Of a DNA stretch of 23,542 bases, positions 8,504-14,393 are shown piece by piece. Numbering within the stretch: the first letter of the stretch is position 1; the number at the start of each line of letters is the position of its first letter. Both the position numbers and the translations under genes were made by a program. Below the pieces are notes generated by a model that made no database searches, was not told the origin of the DNA, and saw nothing but the letters and a program-made list of their open reading frames with translations. Source of the stretch: a virus. Location of the stretch: the IMG/VR virus record IMGVR_UViG_2802429615_000001, positions 1-23,542 of that record; one strand, given 5' to 3'.

Positions 8504-9472
8504 TCACTCCGCGATGCCGGTGATGAGGACGGCTGCCTCGGGCGCCTCGACGGCGAAGTCGTCGCGAACCCGCATGAAGTAGCGGGCGAAGAGGTCGTTC
8601 TCCGCGACCTTGTCCGTGTCCGTCAGCACACGGATCTCGACGTCGTCGTAGAGTCCGTAGATGAAGTTCTGCGGGTGGGTGAACACCGCGGTGTCCTTGG
8701 GCCAGTTGGCGACGCCGACGACGTCGTAGTCGAATGGCGTAGCCTCGTCGTCGCCCATCAGCACAGCGGCCCCGAGCGGGTCGTTCCGCTGCGCGAGGTC
8801 GTTGTGGTAGTTCTGGAGCTGGTCGAGGTTCATGTAGAACCGCGGCTGGGTCCGACCGCTCCGGAGGTACTTGTTCGGCATCGCGAGGATGGCCGAGTTG
8901 AAGAGCTCCGTGCTGACTGGCTGGGCGGTGCCGCCACCGTCCGTGTGGTCGTAGGTGTTGACGTCGCCGTCGTTCTGGAGGATCTTCAGCCACCCGTCGT
9001 TCTGGTTGAGGAACGCATCGGCGTCCGCCTCGTCGCCGTTGATGCCGAGGTCCTGCGTGTCGACCGCGAACTGCCGTGCCAGCATGTCGAGGATGATCTC
9101 GTCGACGTTGTCGACAGTGTCGTCGACGGCCTCACGCGTCAGGTCGTAGGAGACGGTTGCCTTCTCGACGTCCATCAGGACCTGCGAGGTGTCGACCGAC
9201 GCGTCGCCGGCGTCGCCTTCGCCCTCGTCGGCGCCGCGCCGCTGCCGCTCGCCGACGGAGATCTTCGGGAGCGCCATCTTCTGCCGCGGGAGGTCCTCGG
9301 TGCGGGCGTCCTCCAGCATCATGGCGGTGTCCTGGACCTCCTGATAGAACTGCTCAAAAAGGTCGCGAGGGAGCACACCGCCGGCGACATCGGTCGTGTC
9401 GAACTTCGCAGCCGCGCCTTCGTTCTTCTCCCGGGTCCGGTCGATCGTACCGCTGGTGTCAGTCTGACTCAT
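8504..9472 (-). CDS. Major capsid protein, HK97 fold (322 aa)
   Basis: GGVLPRDLFEQFYQEVQDTA (N-arm/helix), E-loop LPKISVGE, spine helix IILDMLARQFAVDTQDLGINGD, terminal RVRDDFAVEAPEAAVLITG. Confidence 0.9.
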   Translation of the reverse strand: MSQTDTSGTIDRTREKNEGAAAKFDTTDVAGGVLPRDLFEQFYQEVQDTAMMLEDARTEDLPRQKMALPKISVGERQRRGADEGEGDAGDASVDTSQVLMDVEKATVSYDLTREAVDDTVDNVDEIILDMLARQFAVDTQDLGINGDEADADAFLNQNDGWLKILQNDGDVNTYDHTDGGGTAQPVSTELFNSAILAMPNKYLRSGRTQPRFYMNLDQLQNYHNDLAQRNDPLGAAVLMGDDEATPFDYDVVGVANWPKDTAVFTHPQNFIYGLYDDVEIRVLTDTDKVAENDLFARYFMRVRDDFAVEAPEAAVLITGIAE

Positions 9473-10722
9473 CAGTTACCACCCGCCTTCCGCGGGTCGA
9501 GGGTGAAGCCGCTGTTCTTGTCGTCGCCACCGCTGGCGCCCTTCTCCGTCCCGCCGAGCTGCTGGGACTCGGTCGTCCCGGTCTGCTTCGAGATCTCGTC
9601 GATGCGCTCGCCCTGCTTGTCGACGTCCTCCTTCAGCTCCTGCGCCCACTCCGGGGCGTCGGCGAAGGGGTCGTCGCCGGCGTTCTTGCCGTCGCCGTCG
9701 GACTCGATCGCCTCGTCGATCCGCTTGTTCTGTTCTTCGACCTGTTCCTGGAGTTCCTTGGCCCACTCCGGGGGCTCGTTGTCGTTGGTGTCTCCCATGT
9801 CGGAGTCGTCGGCGGACTTCGAGCCGCCGTCGTCATCGGCCGGCGTGTCGCCGCCGGCAGCGTCCTTGTCGCCCTGTTCGCCCTCGTCGACGTCGTCGCG
9901 ACCGGCCGACTTCGCATCGGGCCGGCCCGCGGTAGACGCGTCATCCCGGAGCCGGAGCACGTCGCGGACGGCCTTGCCGAGCCGGGTGAACGCCGACTGC
10001 TTCCCCGGATCGCCGGCGCCCTCGACGTCGATCGCGCGGTGGAGCACGTCCCACATCCGCTCGGCTTCGTCCTCAGTGTGGCCGCGCTCCATCGCCTCCG
10101 CGATGAAGTCGTCACGGTTGCCGAGGTGGTCGCCGAGGCGCTTCGCGGCCGCGCCCTTCGTCGCGAGGATCTGCGCGTCGGGCACTGCCGGGTAGTCCAC
10201 GCTGGAGACCTCGCGAACGAGGCCACCTTGCAGTTCCCAGACCGGCTGCTCGTCGCCGTAGTCCTCAGCGCGGTCGACGTCGTCCGGCACCTCGTCGGGG
10301 TACATCGGGTTCGACCACGTGACGTCGACAGCGCCGATCGAGTGGCCGCCGACCACGCCGTCGGAGATGAGGCTCCACAGCTCGTCGTCGTTGTACTTCC
10401 AGGCCTGAACCCACGCGCCGGCCTCGACGGTCTCGCCGCCGATCTGCTCGGCCTCATCGAGGACCTCGTTGCGTTCGAGTTCCATCCAGTCGGACGGCCA
10501 CGCGGCATGCATGATGCCGCCGTCGGCCTCGCCCGCCTCGAGGAAGTTCTCGAACTGCGTGGCCCACTCGCGAAGGAGGTCCTCGCGGATGAAGTCGCCC
10601 TGGAGGTCGACCTTGTCCGGGACCATCACGACCCCGGCCGCGATCTGCTCCTCCTCGTCCTTCGCGATGTAGTCGACTCGCTTGCGGATGGTCGACTGGT
10701 TCGCCTTGCTCAGCGGCGGCAC
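9472..10722 (-). CDS. Prohead serine protease (XkdF-like) fused to an acidic scaffold-like C-terminus (416 aa, GTG start)
   Basis: AGVVMVPDKVDLQGD, GGIMH, GGHSIG and EVSSVDYPAVPDA protease motifs; repeated EPPEWAKEL/DAPEWAQEL helices in the tail; TGATG overlap with the MCP. Confidence 0.85.
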   Translation of the reverse strand: MPPLSKANQSTIRKRVDYIAKDEEEQIAAGVVMVPDKVDLQGDFIREDLLREWATQFENFLEAGEADGGIMHAAWPSDWMELERNEVLDEAEQIGGETVEAGAWVQAWKYNDDELWSLISDGVVGGHSIGAVDVTWSNPMYPDEVPDDVDRAEDYGDEQPVWELQGGLVREVSSVDYPAVPDAQILATKGAAAKRLGDHLGNRDDFIAEAMERGHTEDEAERMWDVLHRAIDVEGAGDPGKQSAFTRLGKAVRDVLRLRDDASTAGRPDAKSAGRDDVDEGEQGDKDAAGGDTPADDDGGSKSADDSDMGDTNDNEPPEWAKELQEQVEEQNKRIDEAIESDGDGKNAGDDPFADAPEWAQELKEDVDKQGERIDEISKQTGTTESQQLGGTEKGASGGDDKNSGFTLDPRKAGGN

Positions 10723-10725
10723 GGG

Positions 10726-10845
10726 TCAGCCCTCGCTCTCGTCATCATCGGCGGCGTCAGCGTCGGCGTCCTTGTCGAGCTCCTTGGCACGACCGGTTCC
10801 GAGGACGCCGCGCTTCTCGCCGCGCTCTGTGTTCTTGTCGCTCAT
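10726..10845 (-). CDS. Hypothetical 39-aa acidic micro-protein
   Basis: MSDKNTERGEKRGVLGTGRAKELDKDADADAADDDESEG; codon use like its neighbours; stop 3 nt before the protease GTG. Below the track cutoff. Confidence 0.5.
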   Translation of the reverse strand: MSDKNTERGEKRGVLGTGRAKELDKDADADAADDDESEG

Positions 10846-10933: not shown

Positions 10934-12796
10934 TTAGATCTCGCTCGGGACGTCGTCCGGCACCTCACCGGGATCGGGCGTCGGGCCCTCCGGTAGCCGC
11001 TCGTGGTTGTTGGTTATCTCAAGGTAGCCGTACTCCAGCCGGATGTTCGCGTAGTGGTACGACCCCGCCGACGGCGCGTTGACGAGGTCGTTCCACACCG
11101 TCACCGGGACGTCGACGTACACGTACAGCGAGTTCTGCCCGTCCGGCCGCTTGAACGAGAGGTACAGCTCGCGCTCGCCGAAGTCGTAGAGCCCCTCGTC
11201 GAGGTTCGAGGAGTTGAACGTCGTCTGCTCGATCGGGTCCTTGTCGACGTCGATGTCGACGCTCGCCCGCTCGCCGATCTTGTTCTCCTGTGGCGGGGCC
11301 GCCTTCGACCGCATGGCCTCGGCCTCGTCGCCGTCAGTGGCGTTGGCGTCGAACTGCGCCTCGAACTCGGAGAGCGTCATCTCGCCTCGCTCGTCGTCGA
11401 ACGGCTCCAGCCCGAGCTCTTCGCGCGCTTCGTTGACGGTTCCGACGCCGGCGAGGCGCATCGCCCGGACGCGCTGTTCTGCCATCCGCGCATCCTCTTG
11501 GGGCTGGTCGGCGCCGTGGAGCTCGAAGTCGATCGTCCAGTCGTCGACGCCGAGCGCCTGCTGGTGGAGGATGGTGTAGAGCCGCGACTCGAACTTCGCC
11601 TGCTCCGGCGCGATGACGTCGGTCGCGAACTCCCGGACCTGCTCCTTGGAGTTGGCCCGGTTTGACGTCGATGTCACGTTGATGAGGATCGGCGGCACCT
11701 CGTGGACTTTCGCGATCTCGTGCTCGTTGCGCTCGCGGAACGCCTGGAACTCCATGTCGAGGTCCTCCCGCGAGCCGACAGGGACGAGTTCGATCTCGAC
11801 ATCGGAGTCGTCCAGTTCGTTCTTCTTGAACTCCTCCACCTCAAGCAGCGCGGTCCGATAGCGACTACCCTTGAGGTTGTCCATCAACTCGCGGAGCTCC
11901 TGCTTGGAGTCCTCGGTGAGAGTCCCGCCAGTCACCTTGATGACGTAGAACGGGACGCCGAGGTTGTCGAAGATGTCGTGGTTCCACTCCTTCGCGGCCT
12001 GATCGGCGCCCATCGTCTGCATCGCGGCGACCCAGTCAGGGACACCGTAGTAGAGCGAGAGCGGCGACGGATTCGGAATGAAGATGAGCTCGTTCGCCGG
12101 TCCGTTCGGGAGGTCGCCGGCGTCGCTCGCGACCTCACCCGTCTCCTTGTCGACGAACGTCGGGTCGTCGCCGTACCGGTCGCCGGCCTCGCCGAAGTAG
12201 CGCCGCCGACCCTGTCGCACTTGGACGTAGCCGTGCCCGCTCTCGATGATGTCGTCGGCGTCTTCGCGCTCCTCGACGACGGTCTTCCGGACGCGAACCG
12301 TGGCCGCCGGCACGTGGGCGAGCCCGACCGGCGTGCCGTCGCCCTCGACGAGGATCTCCAGCGACGTCCACCCGATGCCGTGGTAGTCCTGCCGGCCGAG
12401 CTCCAGCACCTCCTCGGGAGTCGACATCGCCGTGCCCTCCGGGCCGATCTGCCATCGCGAGTCGGAGCCGTACCAGAAGTCGCGAACGCTCTGGTACGCC
12501 TCGCCATCCTCGTTGGGCGAGTCCGCGCTCGGGTGTGGGACGATGTTGAACCCGTACCCCGCCTCGTACCGCGACTTCTTGCGGAGACACGCGTGGTGCG
12601 TCTCGTTGAGCTCTTGGAACGCCGCCAGCGTCTCGGGGTTGTACGGCGGCTGGATGCCCCGCCCGACGTCGGTGGCGATGTGGCGCTCGTCCAGCTGCGT
12701 CGTCTCCTCAGCCTTGGCCATCGACGACTGGTTCCCCAGCGTGTCGACGGTCAGGTCGATCTCATCGCCAGCGTCGTCGGTGGTGTCGTCAGTCAT
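10934..12796 (-). CDS. Portal protein with C-terminal KTSC domain (620 aa)
   Basis: Follows terL. Portal motifs GLAHVPAATVRVR, YYGVPDW, HEIAKVHEVPPILI and TVNEAREELGLEP; C-terminal SSNLDEGLYD...YVDVPVTVWNDLVNAPSAGSYHYANIR matches the KTSC pattern. Confidence 0.9.
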   Translation of the reverse strand: MTDDTTDDAGDEIDLTVDTLGNQSSMAKAEETTQLDERHIATDVGRGIQPPYNPETLAAFQELNETHHACLRKKSRYEAGYGFNIVPHPSADSPNEDGEAYQSVRDFWYGSDSRWQIGPEGTAMSTPEEVLELGRQDYHGIGWTSLEILVEGDGTPVGLAHVPAATVRVRKTVVEEREDADDIIESGHGYVQVRQGRRRYFGEAGDRYGDDPTFVDKETGEVASDAGDLPNGPANELIFIPNPSPLSLYYGVPDWVAAMQTMGADQAAKEWNHDIFDNLGVPFYVIKVTGGTLTEDSKQELRELMDNLKGSRYRTALLEVEEFKKNELDDSDVEIELVPVGSREDLDMEFQAFRERNEHEIAKVHEVPPILINVTSTSNRANSKEQVREFATDVIAPEQAKFESRLYTILHQQALGVDDWTIDFELHGADQPQEDARMAEQRVRAMRLAGVGTVNEAREELGLEPFDDERGEMTLSEFEAQFDANATDGDEAEAMRSKAAPPQENKIGERASVDIDVDKDPIEQTTFNSSNLDEGLYDFGERELYLSFKRPDGQNSLYVYVDVPVTVWNDLVNAPSAGSYHYANIRLEYGYLEITNNHERLPEGPTPDPGEVPDDVPSEI

Positions 12797-12797
12797 G

Positions 12798-14393
12798 TTA
12801 GAGGTAGCTCACTCCGTTGGCGTCGTCATCGTCGTCGCCGGCGTCGCGCTCCTTTCCGTACTCGAACCGGCGCAGCCCCTGCTCGGCCATGTACCACGCC
12901 GCGATGAGGTCGGGCGTGTGGCCCGACAGGCGACCGTCGTCGAGTTCGAGCGAGAGCGCCGCCTGGATCCAGTCCTCGGTGGCGTCGTGCCCACGATAGA
13001 ACTGGATGCCACCGTTCTCGACGAGGTTCCGCAGACGCGGGATGCCGTTCTCCCAGCTGTGCTTCTTGCCCGATGTCGAGATCCCCGTCACCTTCGCGCG
13101 GAGCTCCGGCGAGAACTCGATGGCGTCGTTGACGACGTACTGCTGCATCCCGTTGTCCTCGATGACGATGAGCGCGGGATCGTACCGGCGGTCGTACTCC
13201 TGGAGGCGCGCCTTGATCGTCGACGGCGACATGCCCTGCTCGGCGTGGGCGTCCAGAAGCACCCGCTCGCCTGAGCGCCGGAGCAGCTGGACGACGAACG
13301 CCGCGTCGTCACCCGTGGGACTCTGCGCCGGGTCGTGGCCGACGACGATGGCCTCGCCGGCGCCGGCGCGGTACATCCGCGGCGGCTCGCGCCCGCGGAT
13401 CGAACAGCCGCCCTGGTCGACGTCGGCGTCGACGTCGGCCTGCTCGATGAGGTTGCCCGAGGCGCCCTGAATCGTGAGCGTGTACTCGCGCCAGAACAGG
13501 TGGTCGGCCATCTTCGACCGCTTGTCGGCGAGCCACTCGGGCCCGCGCGCCTCTGGCCAGAGCACTCGCATCGTCTCGCCGTCGCTCCACGGATCCTCGA
13601 CCTCGGTGTAGTACTCCGGGTCGGGCCGGCGCTCCTGCCAGTCGTCCTGGCTTCGGAACGACTTGTCCCAGACGTCGAGGACCGCGGGGAACTCCCGCAG
13701 CGCGTACCCCTCGTACGTCCGGTAGTGCGACCAGATGTCGTCCGGACGCTTCCGCGTCCCAACCATCACGGTGCGCCCCTCGTCTTTGACCATCGGCTGG
13801 GCGACGCCGTCGACCCAGTTGATGATCTCCGAGGTCTCCCCGTCGCCACGCTCCTTGATGATGTCGTCGTGGATGAGGACGTGCGCCCGGGCGCCCTCGA
13901 TCGCCCCGAACAGCCAGCCGGTCGTCAGCGAGGCGTCGTGGTGGAACTCCTTGACCTTCTTCGAGTCCGTCTTCCGCGGCTTGTTCAGGTTGAGCAGCCA
14001 CGGGTTCCGCTCGATGACCTTGTTGAGCTCCCGGTCGGCTTTCTCGTACGCCTGCGGCCGGGTGTTCATACACCAGATGGCACGGAAGCCCGGCTTGTAC
14101 TCGAGGCAGGCGACCAGGTACGCCGTGACGATCGTCGTCTTCAGCCCGTCCCGGTGACACAGCAGCGCGAGGTCGCCGTCGACGTCGGCGTCGCCGGCGA
14201 GGTGCCGGAGCCACTGGCCGTGGTGCTCGGCGAGCGGCACCCAGTCGTCAGGCTCCTCCGCCATGTAGCCCTGCGTGAGCTTGTTCGCGAAGTCGAGCCA
14301 GCACCCGTGTTCGAACGGGTTGTACGCGGCGCGGATCTCCGCACGGGAGAGGTCGACCTCGGTGCGCCCGCCGGCCGATGCCGTGCTACTCAT
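12798..14393 (-). CDS. terL: Terminase large subunit (531 aa)
   Basis: ATPase motifs CHRDGLKTT (Walker A variant), HVLIHDD (Walker B) and VGTR; RNase H-like nuclease motifs VGHDPA, DDAAFVV, IEDNG and HTPDLIAA. Confidence 0.92.
   Translation of the reverse strand: MSSTASAGGRTEVDLSRAEIRAAYNPFEHGCWLDFANKLTQGYMAEEPDDWVPLAEHHGQWLRHLAGDADVDGDLALLCHRDGLKTTIVTAYLVACLEYKPGFRAIWCMNTRPQAYEKADRELNKVIERNPWLLNLNKPRKTDSKKVKEFHHDASLTTGWLFGAIEGARAHVLIHDDIIKERGDGETSEIINWVDGVAQPMVKDEGRTVMVGTRKRPDDIWSHYRTYEGYALREFPAVLDVWDKSFRSQDDWQERRPDPEYYTEVEDPWSDGETMRVLWPEARGPEWLADKRSKMADHLFWREYTLTIQGASGNLIEQADVDADVDQGGCSIRGREPPRMYRAGAGEAIVVGHDPAQSPTGDDAAFVVQLLRRSGERVLLDAHAEQGMSPSTIKARLQEYDRRYDPALIVIEDNGMQQYVVNDAIEFSPELRAKVTGISTSGKKHSWENGIPRLRNLVENGGIQFYRGHDATEDWIQAALSLELDDGRLSGHTPDLIAAWYMAEQGLRRFEYGKERDAGDDDDDANGVSYL

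Follow-up and report, generated by a model that had tools for sequence, protein, structure and literature searches.

A portal gene fused in frame to a KTSC domain in a haloarchaeal provirus, with a possible genome-handling role in place of MuF-type head proteins

Portal gene and head module

The window (the whole stretch of DNA that was analysed, 23,542 nt) is a 23.5-kb provirus fragment with an estimated completeness of 57%, and the gene considered here encodes the portal of an integrated haloarchaeal tailed virus that is probably of the CGphi46/BJ1 (Graaviviridae-like) type. The head-module proteins shared 68% to 93% identity with those of CGphi46, and the gene order was identical. A single ORF of 620 aa ran from the portal core through to a KTSC domain without a stop, as judged from the ORF list and the translation; its ATG started one base past the terminase stop. 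It had the position of a portal gene, between the large terminase gene and the protease and capsid genes, all on the minus strand:

12798..14393, minus strand, large terminase subunit (Terminase_6C, E 4e-12; phrog_38, E 4e-45)
10934..12796, minus strand, whole portal-KTSC gene (P0001), 620 codons plus stop (PF04860 and PF13619; phrog_12 portal, E 2.6e-48)
10726..10845, minus strand, mini-gene of 39 codons, conserved and the counterpart of BJ1 ORF51, separating portal and protease
9472..10722, minus strand, prohead protease of the XkdF type whose C-terminal part is long and acidic (Peptidase_S78_2, E 6e-24; phrog_26743, E 5.5e-167)
8504..9472, minus strand, HK97-type major capsid protein (Phage_capsid, E 1e-9; phrog_1623, E 2e-84)

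The product of the mini-gene had a basic N-terminal half and an acidic tail, and the GAGG sequence that serves the protease gene as ribosome-binding site lay within the 3' end of the mini-gene. Stop-codon read-through joining the mini-ORF to the protease, which lies in the same frame, was ruled out, BJ1 having two stops there; the spacing, which suits a GAGG ribosome-binding site with translational coupling, also spoke against it.

The following parts were distinguished within the portal-KTSC gene:

11411..12361, minus strand, portal core, residues 146-462 (Phage_portal PF04860, Pfam)
11345..11503, minus strand, crown helices, residues 432-484, including TVNEAREELGLEP (AlphaFold helices 432-449, 454-461, 469-472 and 475-484)
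11297..11344, minus strand, variable acidic/Gly linker of about 16 residues, 485-500 (pLDDT <50 at 485-495)
11267..11296, minus strand, conserved motif PPxENKIGER, residues 501-510, present only in fused forms
11018..11233, minus strand, KTSC domain, residues 522-593 (Pfam match at residues 528-589, nt 11030-11215; Pfam and six-frame search)
10937..11017, minus strand, Pro-rich acidic tail, residues 594-620, ITNxHxRLPEGPxPDxxDxPDDxP, conserved 70% to 96% at most positions

The core matched Phage_portal, the HK97/PBSX-type portal family, with a score of 92.4 bits (E 4e-26; curated cut-off 39.1). A full-length AlphaFold model with a mean pLDDT of 68.6 (80 to 94 in the core blocks) matched the solved portals of phage 812, HFTV1, a gene transfer agent and HK97, with E values of 1e-11 to 1e-10 and target TM scores of 0.5 to 0.6. 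The sequence TVNEAREELGLEP corresponded to residues 453-465, from which an acidic stretch extended to residue 500. By analogy with the homologous solved portals, the product is predicted to be a dodecamer whose crown lies in the capsid lumen, and the crown helices would be oriented toward the capsid interior. The view that the portal C-terminus lies inside the capsid, put forward in an earlier note on this DNA, is thus favoured, as the C-terminal part follows the crown helices and the protein is homologous to the solved portals of HK97 (8CEZ) and HFTV1 (8QQN). Since the crown faces the capsid lumen in dodecameric portals, twelve KTSC domains would be tethered round the inner mouth of the DNA channel.

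KTSC domain and conservation of the fusion

Nucleotides 11024-11233 of the minus strand, which encode residues 522-591 of the portal ORF, had been described in the earlier note as a complete KTSC domain fused in frame to the portal, and the profile match, the open frame and the fold all bore this out. In the Pfam search, KTSC (PF13619) matched residues 528-589 over profile positions 1-58 of 58 with 48.4 bits against a cut-off of 25 (E 7.6e-13), and a six-frame search of the genome placed the match at nt 11030-11215 (53 bits) in an open frame of 624 codons with no internal stop. The KTSC signature motifs, namely SSN at the first strand, a central YxY, VP, SxG and I[RK]..Y.Y, were retained as S529-S530-N531, Y558-x-Y560, V563-P564, S576-x-G578, I585-R586 and Y589-x-Y591; among 98 homologues these positions were invariant or at least 87% conserved, and they aligned with those of the KTSC crystal structure 7X8C. 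Invariant residues were F527, S529, N531, L532, F548, Y558, Y560, W568, L571, A574, S576, G578, H581, Y591 and E593. The KTSC core was modelled with pLDDT above 90 (mean 82.6 in a model of the domain only), and the predicted domain superimposed on 7X8C with a target TM of 0.91 to 0.93 and an rmsd of 1.6 to 1.7 A, and on 4RGI with a TM of 0.89.

The segments surrounding the domain differed in conservation. The linker had the lowest column conservation among the 98 homologues, varied in length and showed the highest dN/dS within the gene. In PPxENKIGER, P501 was conserved in 100%, P502 in 96%, G508 in 98% and R510 in 96% of these homologues, and the motif was not found in the stand-alone viral KTSC proteins compared. 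The KTSC part together with the tail showed dN/dS of about 0.02 to 0.6 in close pairs, indicative of purifying selection; the values for the tail, which was predicted to be disordered, were 0.02 to 0.13. In a second sub-lineage of portal-KTSC proteins a different tail, TGWPQIGA, was observed.

The fusion was found in more than 120 haloarchaeal homologues, a lower bound, and both Pfam domains were present in all 120 homologues among the matches listed. It was encoded by 19 of the 401 haloarchaeal genomes sampled, in 22 genomic copies, and two cultured viruses, CGphi46 and BJ1, possessed it as well (PF04860 plus a C-terminal PF13619). Identities of the window portal were 83% with CGphi46, 54% with BJ1 and 43% with phiCh1/phiH. 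These figures bear on the possibility that a frameshift or an assembly error merged two genes, or that the domain is a functionless add-on. One related locus (L038) encoded the portal in one frame and the KTSC part in another, with the change of frame inside the linker, so that breaks can occur there. Against this, the frame was unbroken in more than 120 protein clusters and in the 22 genomic copies, the domain and tail were under purifying selection with invariant signature residues, and a second portal family possessed an independent KTSC fusion (see below). A hidden stop or frameshift is excluded because the fusion is conserved in more than 100 independent assemblies; conservation across homologues refutes the artefact, and merger or neutral accretion taken together is barely credible. 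The fusion is thus confirmed as genuine and conserved, neither an assembly error nor a one-off.

The same note knew of no characterised portal with this architecture. The literature searched contained no discussion of a portal-KTSC protein, and the genome papers of BJ1 and phiH1 mention only portal similarity and do not discuss a KTSC tail; the architecture itself is neither rare nor hidden, the portal of BJ1, a virus sequenced in 2007, carrying the UniRef label 'KTSC domain-containing protein'.

KTSC genes, MuF genes and a second portal family

The region between the portal and the protease was compared with that of related viruses. In phiCh1, DL1 and a metagenome-assembled genome locus (L022), which possessed homologous terminase, portal, protease and capsid genes without KTSC, a MuF gene was located exactly between portal and protease, and in phiH a head morphogenesis protein was also encoded there. 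No MuF gene was present between portal and protease in the window. The MuF models PF04233 and PF06152, which matched both positive controls, phiCh1 and DL1, matched nothing in the window, nor anything in the full-length CGphi46 and BJ1 genomes, and tblastn with haloarchaeal MuF queries found no MuF gene in the window, in 16 further loci (L005-L020), in CGphi46 or in BJ1, all of which are KTSC-tailed. The KTSC tail and MuF are therefore mutually exclusive in the haloarchaeal viruses compared. The exchange amounts to one phylogenetic event separating two clades, so that this complementarity could be a coincidence. The mini-gene was distributed similarly: of 29 portal-KTSC loci 27 had it, and it was missing from the MuF-type loci and the split-type loci (described next) that were compared.

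KTSC domains had been stated to be mostly small and to stand alone, which agreed with the profile search, in which most of the best 150 of 4543 hits were 62 to 150 aa long. About 34 short free KTSC genes were observed in the 401 haloarchaeal genomes. Another group of haloarchaeal viruses showed a split form at three loci (L024, L037 and L039), with a KTSC gene of 102 to 132 aa located after the large terminase gene and before the next gene, its start and stop codons overlapping or nearly abutting those of its neighbours. The gene that follows encoded a PF04860 portal in L037 and L039, and in L024 a protein that is a portal by position only, with no family match. These split-form genes were the closest relatives of the fused KTSC domain. 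A scan of viral contigs with a stand-alone KTSC protein (P0137) returned mostly the known haloarchaeal fusions and a single split locus, L024. A search of the ESM Atlas with residues 505-620 gave no usable match.

A KTSC domain was also found at the end of three proteins (P0272, P0273 and P0162) of another portal family, phrog_33693, which come from uncultured, probably bacterial, viruses; the fusion in this family arose independently. In about 100 sister portals of the same family, the crown was followed by a winged-helix domain of DNA-binding type in place of KTSC. The Cys-containing domain at the C-terminus of these winged-helix portals had no Pfam or PHROG match and was dropped as a MuF-like candidate, profile comparison with haloarchaeal MuF giving a probability of 0.2%. 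For P0162, a scan of viral contigs gave no match, and no long protein with the same KTSC part turned up in a word search.

Outside portals, KTSC was also found fused to DnaJ and TPR domains. Many phage KTSC genes were located away from portals; those of jumbo phages were beside IF3/ClpS. Streptomyces phage Muntaha has a distantly homologous portal, at 13 kb, but its KTSC gene was ruled out as a neighbour, lying at 89.7 kb. KTSC proteins were detected in purified virions of jumbo phage CBB, and a KTSC protein of PA5oct was annotated as structural.

Possible function and comparison with known systems

The earlier note had ascribed single-stranded nucleic-acid binding to KTSC, in line with a published report of a KTSC protein as a ssDNA binder (Tian et al. 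2022, Int J Biol Macromol 216:618, as cited in PMC11237433; PDB 7X8C). The fused domains were depleted of most basic residues; they averaged 3.4 K+R and 13.3 D+E residues, a net charge of -9.9, and the averages for free KTSC proteins were -1.8 in haloarchaea and -0.2 elsewhere. As the independent fusion outside haloarchaea was likewise acidic (net -3 to -9), salt adaptation does not explain the acidity. Judged from this composition, electrostatic DNA binding by the fused domains would be unlikely, and the acidity weakens a simple DNA-gripping reading.

The reading that we prefer, to which we assign a probability of about 45%, is that the KTSC tail is a portal-tethered, capsid-internal module for genome handling that takes the place of MuF/gp7. 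The ring of KTSC domains would be a built-in accessory substituting for a separate minor head protein of the MuF/SPP1-gp7 type; it may grip a single-stranded or frayed end of the DNA, or else whatever DNA lies at the mouth of the channel. In this view the contact site would be the one formed by the conserved aromatic and Arg signature residues of the KTSC fold, and the remaining surface, being very acidic, would not adhere to the packed duplex. That the domain binds at all, whether it does so in packaging, retention or ejection, and whether it persists on the mature portal are matters of conjecture. The mutual exclusion with MuF, the KTSC genes split off within the packaging operon, the independent fusion in phrog_33693 and the winged helix at the same position in sister portals argue for genome handling, as do the retained signature residues together with the ssDNA binding reported, in the work cited above, for a characterised member, and the KTSC proteins in CBB virions. 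The DnaJ-KTSC and TPR-KTSC fusions, which suggest protein partners, and the many phage KTSC genes distant from portals count against it.

Protein partners are central to a second explanation, by which the KTSC domain and acidic tail would dock on a protein during assembly and help to nucleate or size the procapsid round the portal. They might bind the protease at its scaffold-like C-terminal part, the capsid protein at its inner face, or the basic half of the 39-aa mini-protein. Strong acidification of the fused domains in two independent lineages is consistent with docking, and so are the partners hinted at by DnaJ-KTSC and TPR-KTSC, the co-occurrence of the mini-gene with the fusion and a tail that is highly constrained yet predicted to be disordered, as for a linear docking motif. 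However, that co-occurrence may reflect shared descent alone, the split-form genes were located in the terminase-portal operon and not next to scaffold or capsid genes, the sister portals of phrog_33693 have a winged helix, which is typically DNA-binding, at the same place, and the sole characterised KTSC member is, according to the same cited report, a ssDNA binder. We consider docking unlikely.

Release of the domain, which we judge to be quite unlikely, would follow if the prohead protease cut near PPxENKIGER and freed twelve KTSC polypeptides in the head, comparable to MuF-anchored or portal-anchored head cargo. These would leave the head together with the DNA and take effect in the newly infected cell, where they might, for instance, bind the entering DNA end, bind host nucleic acid or serve as an acidic decoy. 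The presence of a conserved motif just upstream of the domain in fused forms only would suit such a cut; stand-alone viral KTSC proteins imply that the domain is able to work untethered, KTSC proteins occur in CBB virions and carry a structural annotation in PA5oct, and MuF proteins are known carriers of head-packaged effectors. On the other hand, PPxENKIGER was modelled confidently (pLDDT about 86) as a beta-strand in the full-length model and may be structural.

Genome handling could extend beyond this virus group. Somewhat more speculatively, and with less confidence than for the window gene itself, nucleic-acid-binding modules appended to the crown might form an unrecognised class of built-in portal accessories that replace free MuF/gp7 and set the retention and release of DNA. 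Its members would be the KTSC tails of haloarchaeal viruses, those of a single uncultured phage lineage and the winged helices of that lineage's sisters; twelve tethered copies would hold the genome end at the inner channel mouth, their acidity being an adaptation against sticking.

The exclusivity with MuF, the split KTSC gene, the fusion in a second family and the acidity are new, whereas the fusion itself was already visible in databases. How the genome end is held at the portal is understood in few bacteriophages, and the same is true of the real role of the widespread MuF/gp7. A covalent 12-copy module in the MuF slot, exclusive with MuF and having a split form and a second origin, offers a clean comparative system, amenable to testing as CGphi46 and BJ1 are cultured, and KTSC, very common yet almost unstudied, would gain a defined structural context. 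The weight of this is limited by an architecture that is common and already labelled by automated annotation, and by a function of the tail that is inferred.

The portal architecture of the window is shared with CGphi46 (YP_008126541) and BJ1 (YP_919077, ORF50) of the Graaviviridae. All three have the order small terminase, large terminase, portal-KTSC, mini-ORF, XkdF protease and capsid protein, with no essential difference, so that the window gene is another member of this type. The KTSC proteins of Methanolobus vulcani (7X8C) and Yersinia pestis (YPO2434, 4RGI) share the fold and the signature motifs with the modelled portal domain (TM 0.89 to 0.93, rmsd 1.6 to 2.2 A over 72 to 75 columns, 24% to 26% identity), but they are free proteins of about 70 aa rich in Lys/Arg, whereas the portal domain is tethered, strongly acidic and flanked by extra conserved segments.

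The portals of phrog_33693 resemble the window portal in having a C-terminal add-on beyond the crown, but their core is only distantly related to that of the window, their nearest cultured relative is Nonlabens phage P12024S, and most members have the winged helix and the Cys-containing domain instead of KTSC. The C-terminal barrel of the P22 portal, like the KTSC tail, extends from the crown into the capsid interior, where it touches the genome. The barrel prolongs the channel as a rigid coiled-coil tube, whereas the KTSC tail is predicted to form twelve globular domains on flexible linkers.

The closest functional parallel is MuF (PF04233), represented by SPP1 gp7 and Mu gpF, which are portal-associated, capsid-internal and encoded just after the portal. 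The muf genes lie immediately 3' of portal genes (PMC5576092). SPP1 gp7 is a portal-bound DNA-binding protein sent to the procapsid interior, and only about 25% of SPP1 virions without gp7 are infectious (PMC6316719), in keeping with a gp7 that binds DNA and aids the start of infection. The KTSC tail is predicted to have the same genomic and physical slot. Unlike MuF, it has no sequence or fold kinship with that family, so that it is not a MuF member and functional analogy alone is proposed; each capsid contains one or two copies of MuF, which is a separate protein, whereas the KTSC tail is covalent and hence would be present in 12 copies.

The portal-KTSC gene and its spread

The provirus record (23.5 kb; estimated completeness, 57%; G+C content, about 65%) carried a standard head module on the minus strand of the window:

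12798-14393, minus strand: large terminase
10934-12796, minus strand: portal-KTSC ORF of 620 codons (product P0001), matching PF04860 and PF13619
9472-10722, minus strand: XkdF-type prohead protease whose long C-terminal part is acidic
8504-9472, minus strand: HK97-type major capsid protein

In Pfam, Phage_portal (PF04860) matched P0001 residues 146-462 (92.4 bits) and KTSC (PF13619) matched residues 528-589 over all 58 profile positions (48.4 bits; cut-off, 25). Translation placed the portal end TVNEAREELGLEP at residues 453-465, followed by an acidic stretch, and window positions 11024-11233 at residues 522-591, while a six-frame search of the window located the KTSC match inside an uninterrupted open frame of 624 codons. 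Since the domain matches, the coordinates, the stop-free frame and the placement of TVNEAREELGLEP all agree, the earlier note was correct as written in describing a KTSC domain in frame after the portal end and an acidic linker. In the protease, the XkdF-type part comprised residues 20-132; about 280 more residues, very acidic and of low complexity, probably act as a scaffold. Relatives differed greatly in the length of this extra part: stop-to-stop frames spanned about 420 codons in the closest ones, against about 585 in the rest.

Both Pfam domains were present in all 120 listed homologues (52% to 92% identity; 553 to 673 aa), which came from Halorubrum, Natrinema, Haloarcula, Halobacterium, Halorussus, other haloarchaea and metagenomes. 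The nearest cultured viruses by portal, Halorubrum viruses CGphi46 (83%) and BJ1 (54%), are both Graaviviridae and both possess the portal-KTSC architecture. A KTSC match was found in 54 of 401 sampled haloarchaeal genomes; as to fused versus free forms, a question raised earlier, 22 matches were portal fusions (open frames, 598 to 673 codons) in 19 genomes, a count including the centre genome, which was picked for having such a fusion, versus about 34 short free genes among the remainder, with much higher Pfam scores (80 to 97 bits). No head genes lay within 5 kb of the six free haloarchaeal KTSC genes checked. That the fusion is an artefact or a neutral add-on is essentially excluded. At one locus (L038:5840-5930, genome G208), the portal and KTSC parts of the gene were in different frames, with the shift falling inside the low-complexity linker; provirus decay, misassembly and programmed slippage are all candidate causes.

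No discussion of a portal-KTSC protein was found in the literature searched: the BJ1 and phiH1 genome papers report portal similarity only, and a 2025 preprint has a KTSC-domain label in a figure legend for maps of haloarchaeal virus genomes. The earlier note's statement that no characterised portal of this architecture was known holds to that extent, but the architecture is already visible in databases, as precomputed Pfam pairs on homologues and in the UniRef name of the BJ1 portal, "KTSC domain-containing protein". With both domains in the homologues and such labels on record, the window gene therefore joins a family that is widespread but unstudied.

Anatomy, fold and charge of the C-terminal part

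An alignment of 98 sequences and predicted monomer models divided the C-terminal part of P0001 as follows:

to about residue 484: crown helices
residues 485-500: variable acidic/Gly linker
residues 501-510: motif PPxENKIGER, nearly invariant in the alignment
residues 522-593: KTSC domain, comprising four strands, two helices and a final strand
residues 594-617: conserved Pro-rich acidic tail

The linker was disordered in the model and had the lowest conservation and highest dN/dS among the segments; the fusion is conserved and in frame, with a flexible tether. PPxENKIGER was limited to fused forms. The KTSC domain contained 15 invariant residues in the 98 sequences, among them the family signatures SSN, YxY, VP and SxG, and the tail had a dN/dS of 0.02 to 0.13 in close pairs despite its predicted disorder. 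In a second sub-lineage the tail was instead TGWPQIGA, and stand-alone viral KTSC proteins have a similar one, DWPQQGR...RRF.

Modelled on its own, the domain (mean pLDDT, 82.6; core, >90) superposed on the KTSC crystal structures from Methanolobus vulcani (7X8C) and Yersinia pestis (4RGI) with target TM of 0.89 to 0.93 and rmsd of 1.6 to 2.2 Å. The model also matched part of HerA of SIR2/HerA antiphage complexes (PDB 8WLD, 8WIV and 8WJ3; 23% to 25% identity; 75 columns and rmsd of 3.4 Å for 8WJ3), in keeping with a published comment that HerA-like defence ATPases have KTSC genes alongside them (PMC9503650). The full-length P0001 model matched solved portals, including those of archaeal virus HFTV1 and HK97; by this homology the C-terminus past the crown would face the capsid interior, as had been supposed, and from established portal structure we infer twelve KTSC copies where the channel opens into the head.

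Charge of KTSC domains and proteins
98 fused haloarchaeal KTSC domains: K+R 3.4; D+E 13.3; net -9.9 (range, -19 to -5)
10 free haloarchaeal KTSC proteins: K+R 6.8; D+E 8.6; net -1.8
75 other short free KTSC proteins: K+R 7.3; D+E 7.5; net -0.2

The basic segment HGK...RRIKDK was kept in the free haloarchaeal proteins. Fused forms conserved six basic positions (K506, R510, K519, R550, R586 and R600) and many aromatics. Generic electrostatic DNA binding by the fused domain is unlikely; a specific binding site is possible.

KTSC tail, MuF and the split form

Homologous terminase, portal, protease and capsid genes occur in phiCh1, phiH, Halorubrum tailed virus DL1 and a metagenome-assembled genome (L022). 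Their type of portal, 43% identical to that of the window, ends at about 515 aa without KTSC and is directly followed by a MuF-type head morphogenesis gene (PF04233); KTSC was absent from phiCh1 and DL1. Conversely, tblastn with haloarchaeal MuF queries detected no MuF gene in the window, CGphi46, BJ1 or 16 portal-KTSC loci (L005-L020), and the Pfam MuF models PF04233 and PF06152 had no match in the window or the complete CGphi46 and BJ1 genomes. The KTSC tail and MuF are mutually exclusive in the haloarchaeal viruses compared. Portal genes have muf genes immediately downstream (PMC5576092), and SPP1 gp7 is a portal-bound DNA-binding protein directed to the procapsid interior, without which assembly proceeds, yet only about 25% of virions are infectious (PMC6316719). 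At a probability of roughly 0.45, the KTSC tail would be a built-in genome-handling accessory taking the place of MuF/gp7, in whose stead the portal-tethered domains would handle the genome inside the capsid.

In another haloarchaeal virus group, a KTSC gene (102 to 132 aa) separated the large terminase from the gene that follows:

L037:5966-6274: stand-alone viral KTSC gene; next gene, PF04860 portal
L039:5929-6318, minus strand: stand-alone viral KTSC gene; next gene, PF04860 portal
L024:6001-6396: stand-alone viral KTSC gene; next gene without a family match, portal by position alone

Stop and start codons around these genes overlapped or almost abutted, and the capsid protein was SU10-like in L037 and L039. 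KTSC also exists as a split gene inside the packaging operon. Among the matches listed from a search of 1.84 billion representatives, split-form proteins stood closest to the fused domain.

A conserved 39-codon mini-gene (10726-10845, minus strand) lay between portal and protease in the window, basic in its N-terminal half (ERGEKRGVLGTGRA) and with DADADA as its acidic tail; GAGG within its last codons serves the protease gene as ribosome-binding site. Equivalent to BJ1 ORF51 and unannotated in CGphi46, it occurred at 27 of 29 portal-KTSC loci and at none of the MuF-type and split-type loci.

A second portal family and KTSC in other settings

C-terminal KTSC domains were also found in P0272, P0273 and fragment P0162, all of a distinct portal family, phrog_33693, related most closely among cultured phages to Nonlabens phage P12024S (29% identity). 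This is a second, independent fusion. Its KTSC domains were acidic as well (net -3 to -9); acidification therefore tracks portal context, not merely salt. About 100 sister portals of uncultured phages (P0274-P0391; e.g. P0329 residues 497-660) had, past the crown where KTSC would be, a winged-helix domain matching HTH_24, MarR and TrmB, several matches exceeding the curated cut-off; in these the winged helix substitutes for KTSC. After it came a Cys-containing domain, some 90 aa long, in which SRPFC...GGWYT...PYCRHIW was conserved and which had no Pfam or PHROG family match; comparison with haloarchaeal MuF was negative. The KTSC model also matched A0A6J5N666, a BFVD entry named PBSX-type portal.

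Many phage KTSC genes sit away from portals, and the domain is also present in tandem arrays and joined to DnaJ, TPR or ribbon-helix-helix domains. The first two of these fusion partners, together with the acidity of the fused domains, the constraint on the linear tail and the co-occurrence of the basic mini-protein, would suit a protein-docking module for assembly, to which we give appreciably less credence than to genome handling. Mass spectrometry detected gp320 of Pectobacterium jumbo phage CBB (L051:1447-1980; 177 aa; gene adjoining IF3-like and ClpS-like genes) in purified virions (4 peptides, 37% coverage); packaging of a free KTSC protein is thus established in at least this case. In phage PA5oct, a KTSC-fold protein of 70 aa carries a structural annotation. 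Virion-borne KTSC proteins, and the confinement of PPxENKIGER to fused forms, would accord with a KTSC cargo cut off at this motif and then ejected, which appears less likely still. Genome handling in place of MuF/gp7 remains the preferred reading. Biologically, the portal-KTSC protein is a portal with a C-terminal interior extension, a kind already known.
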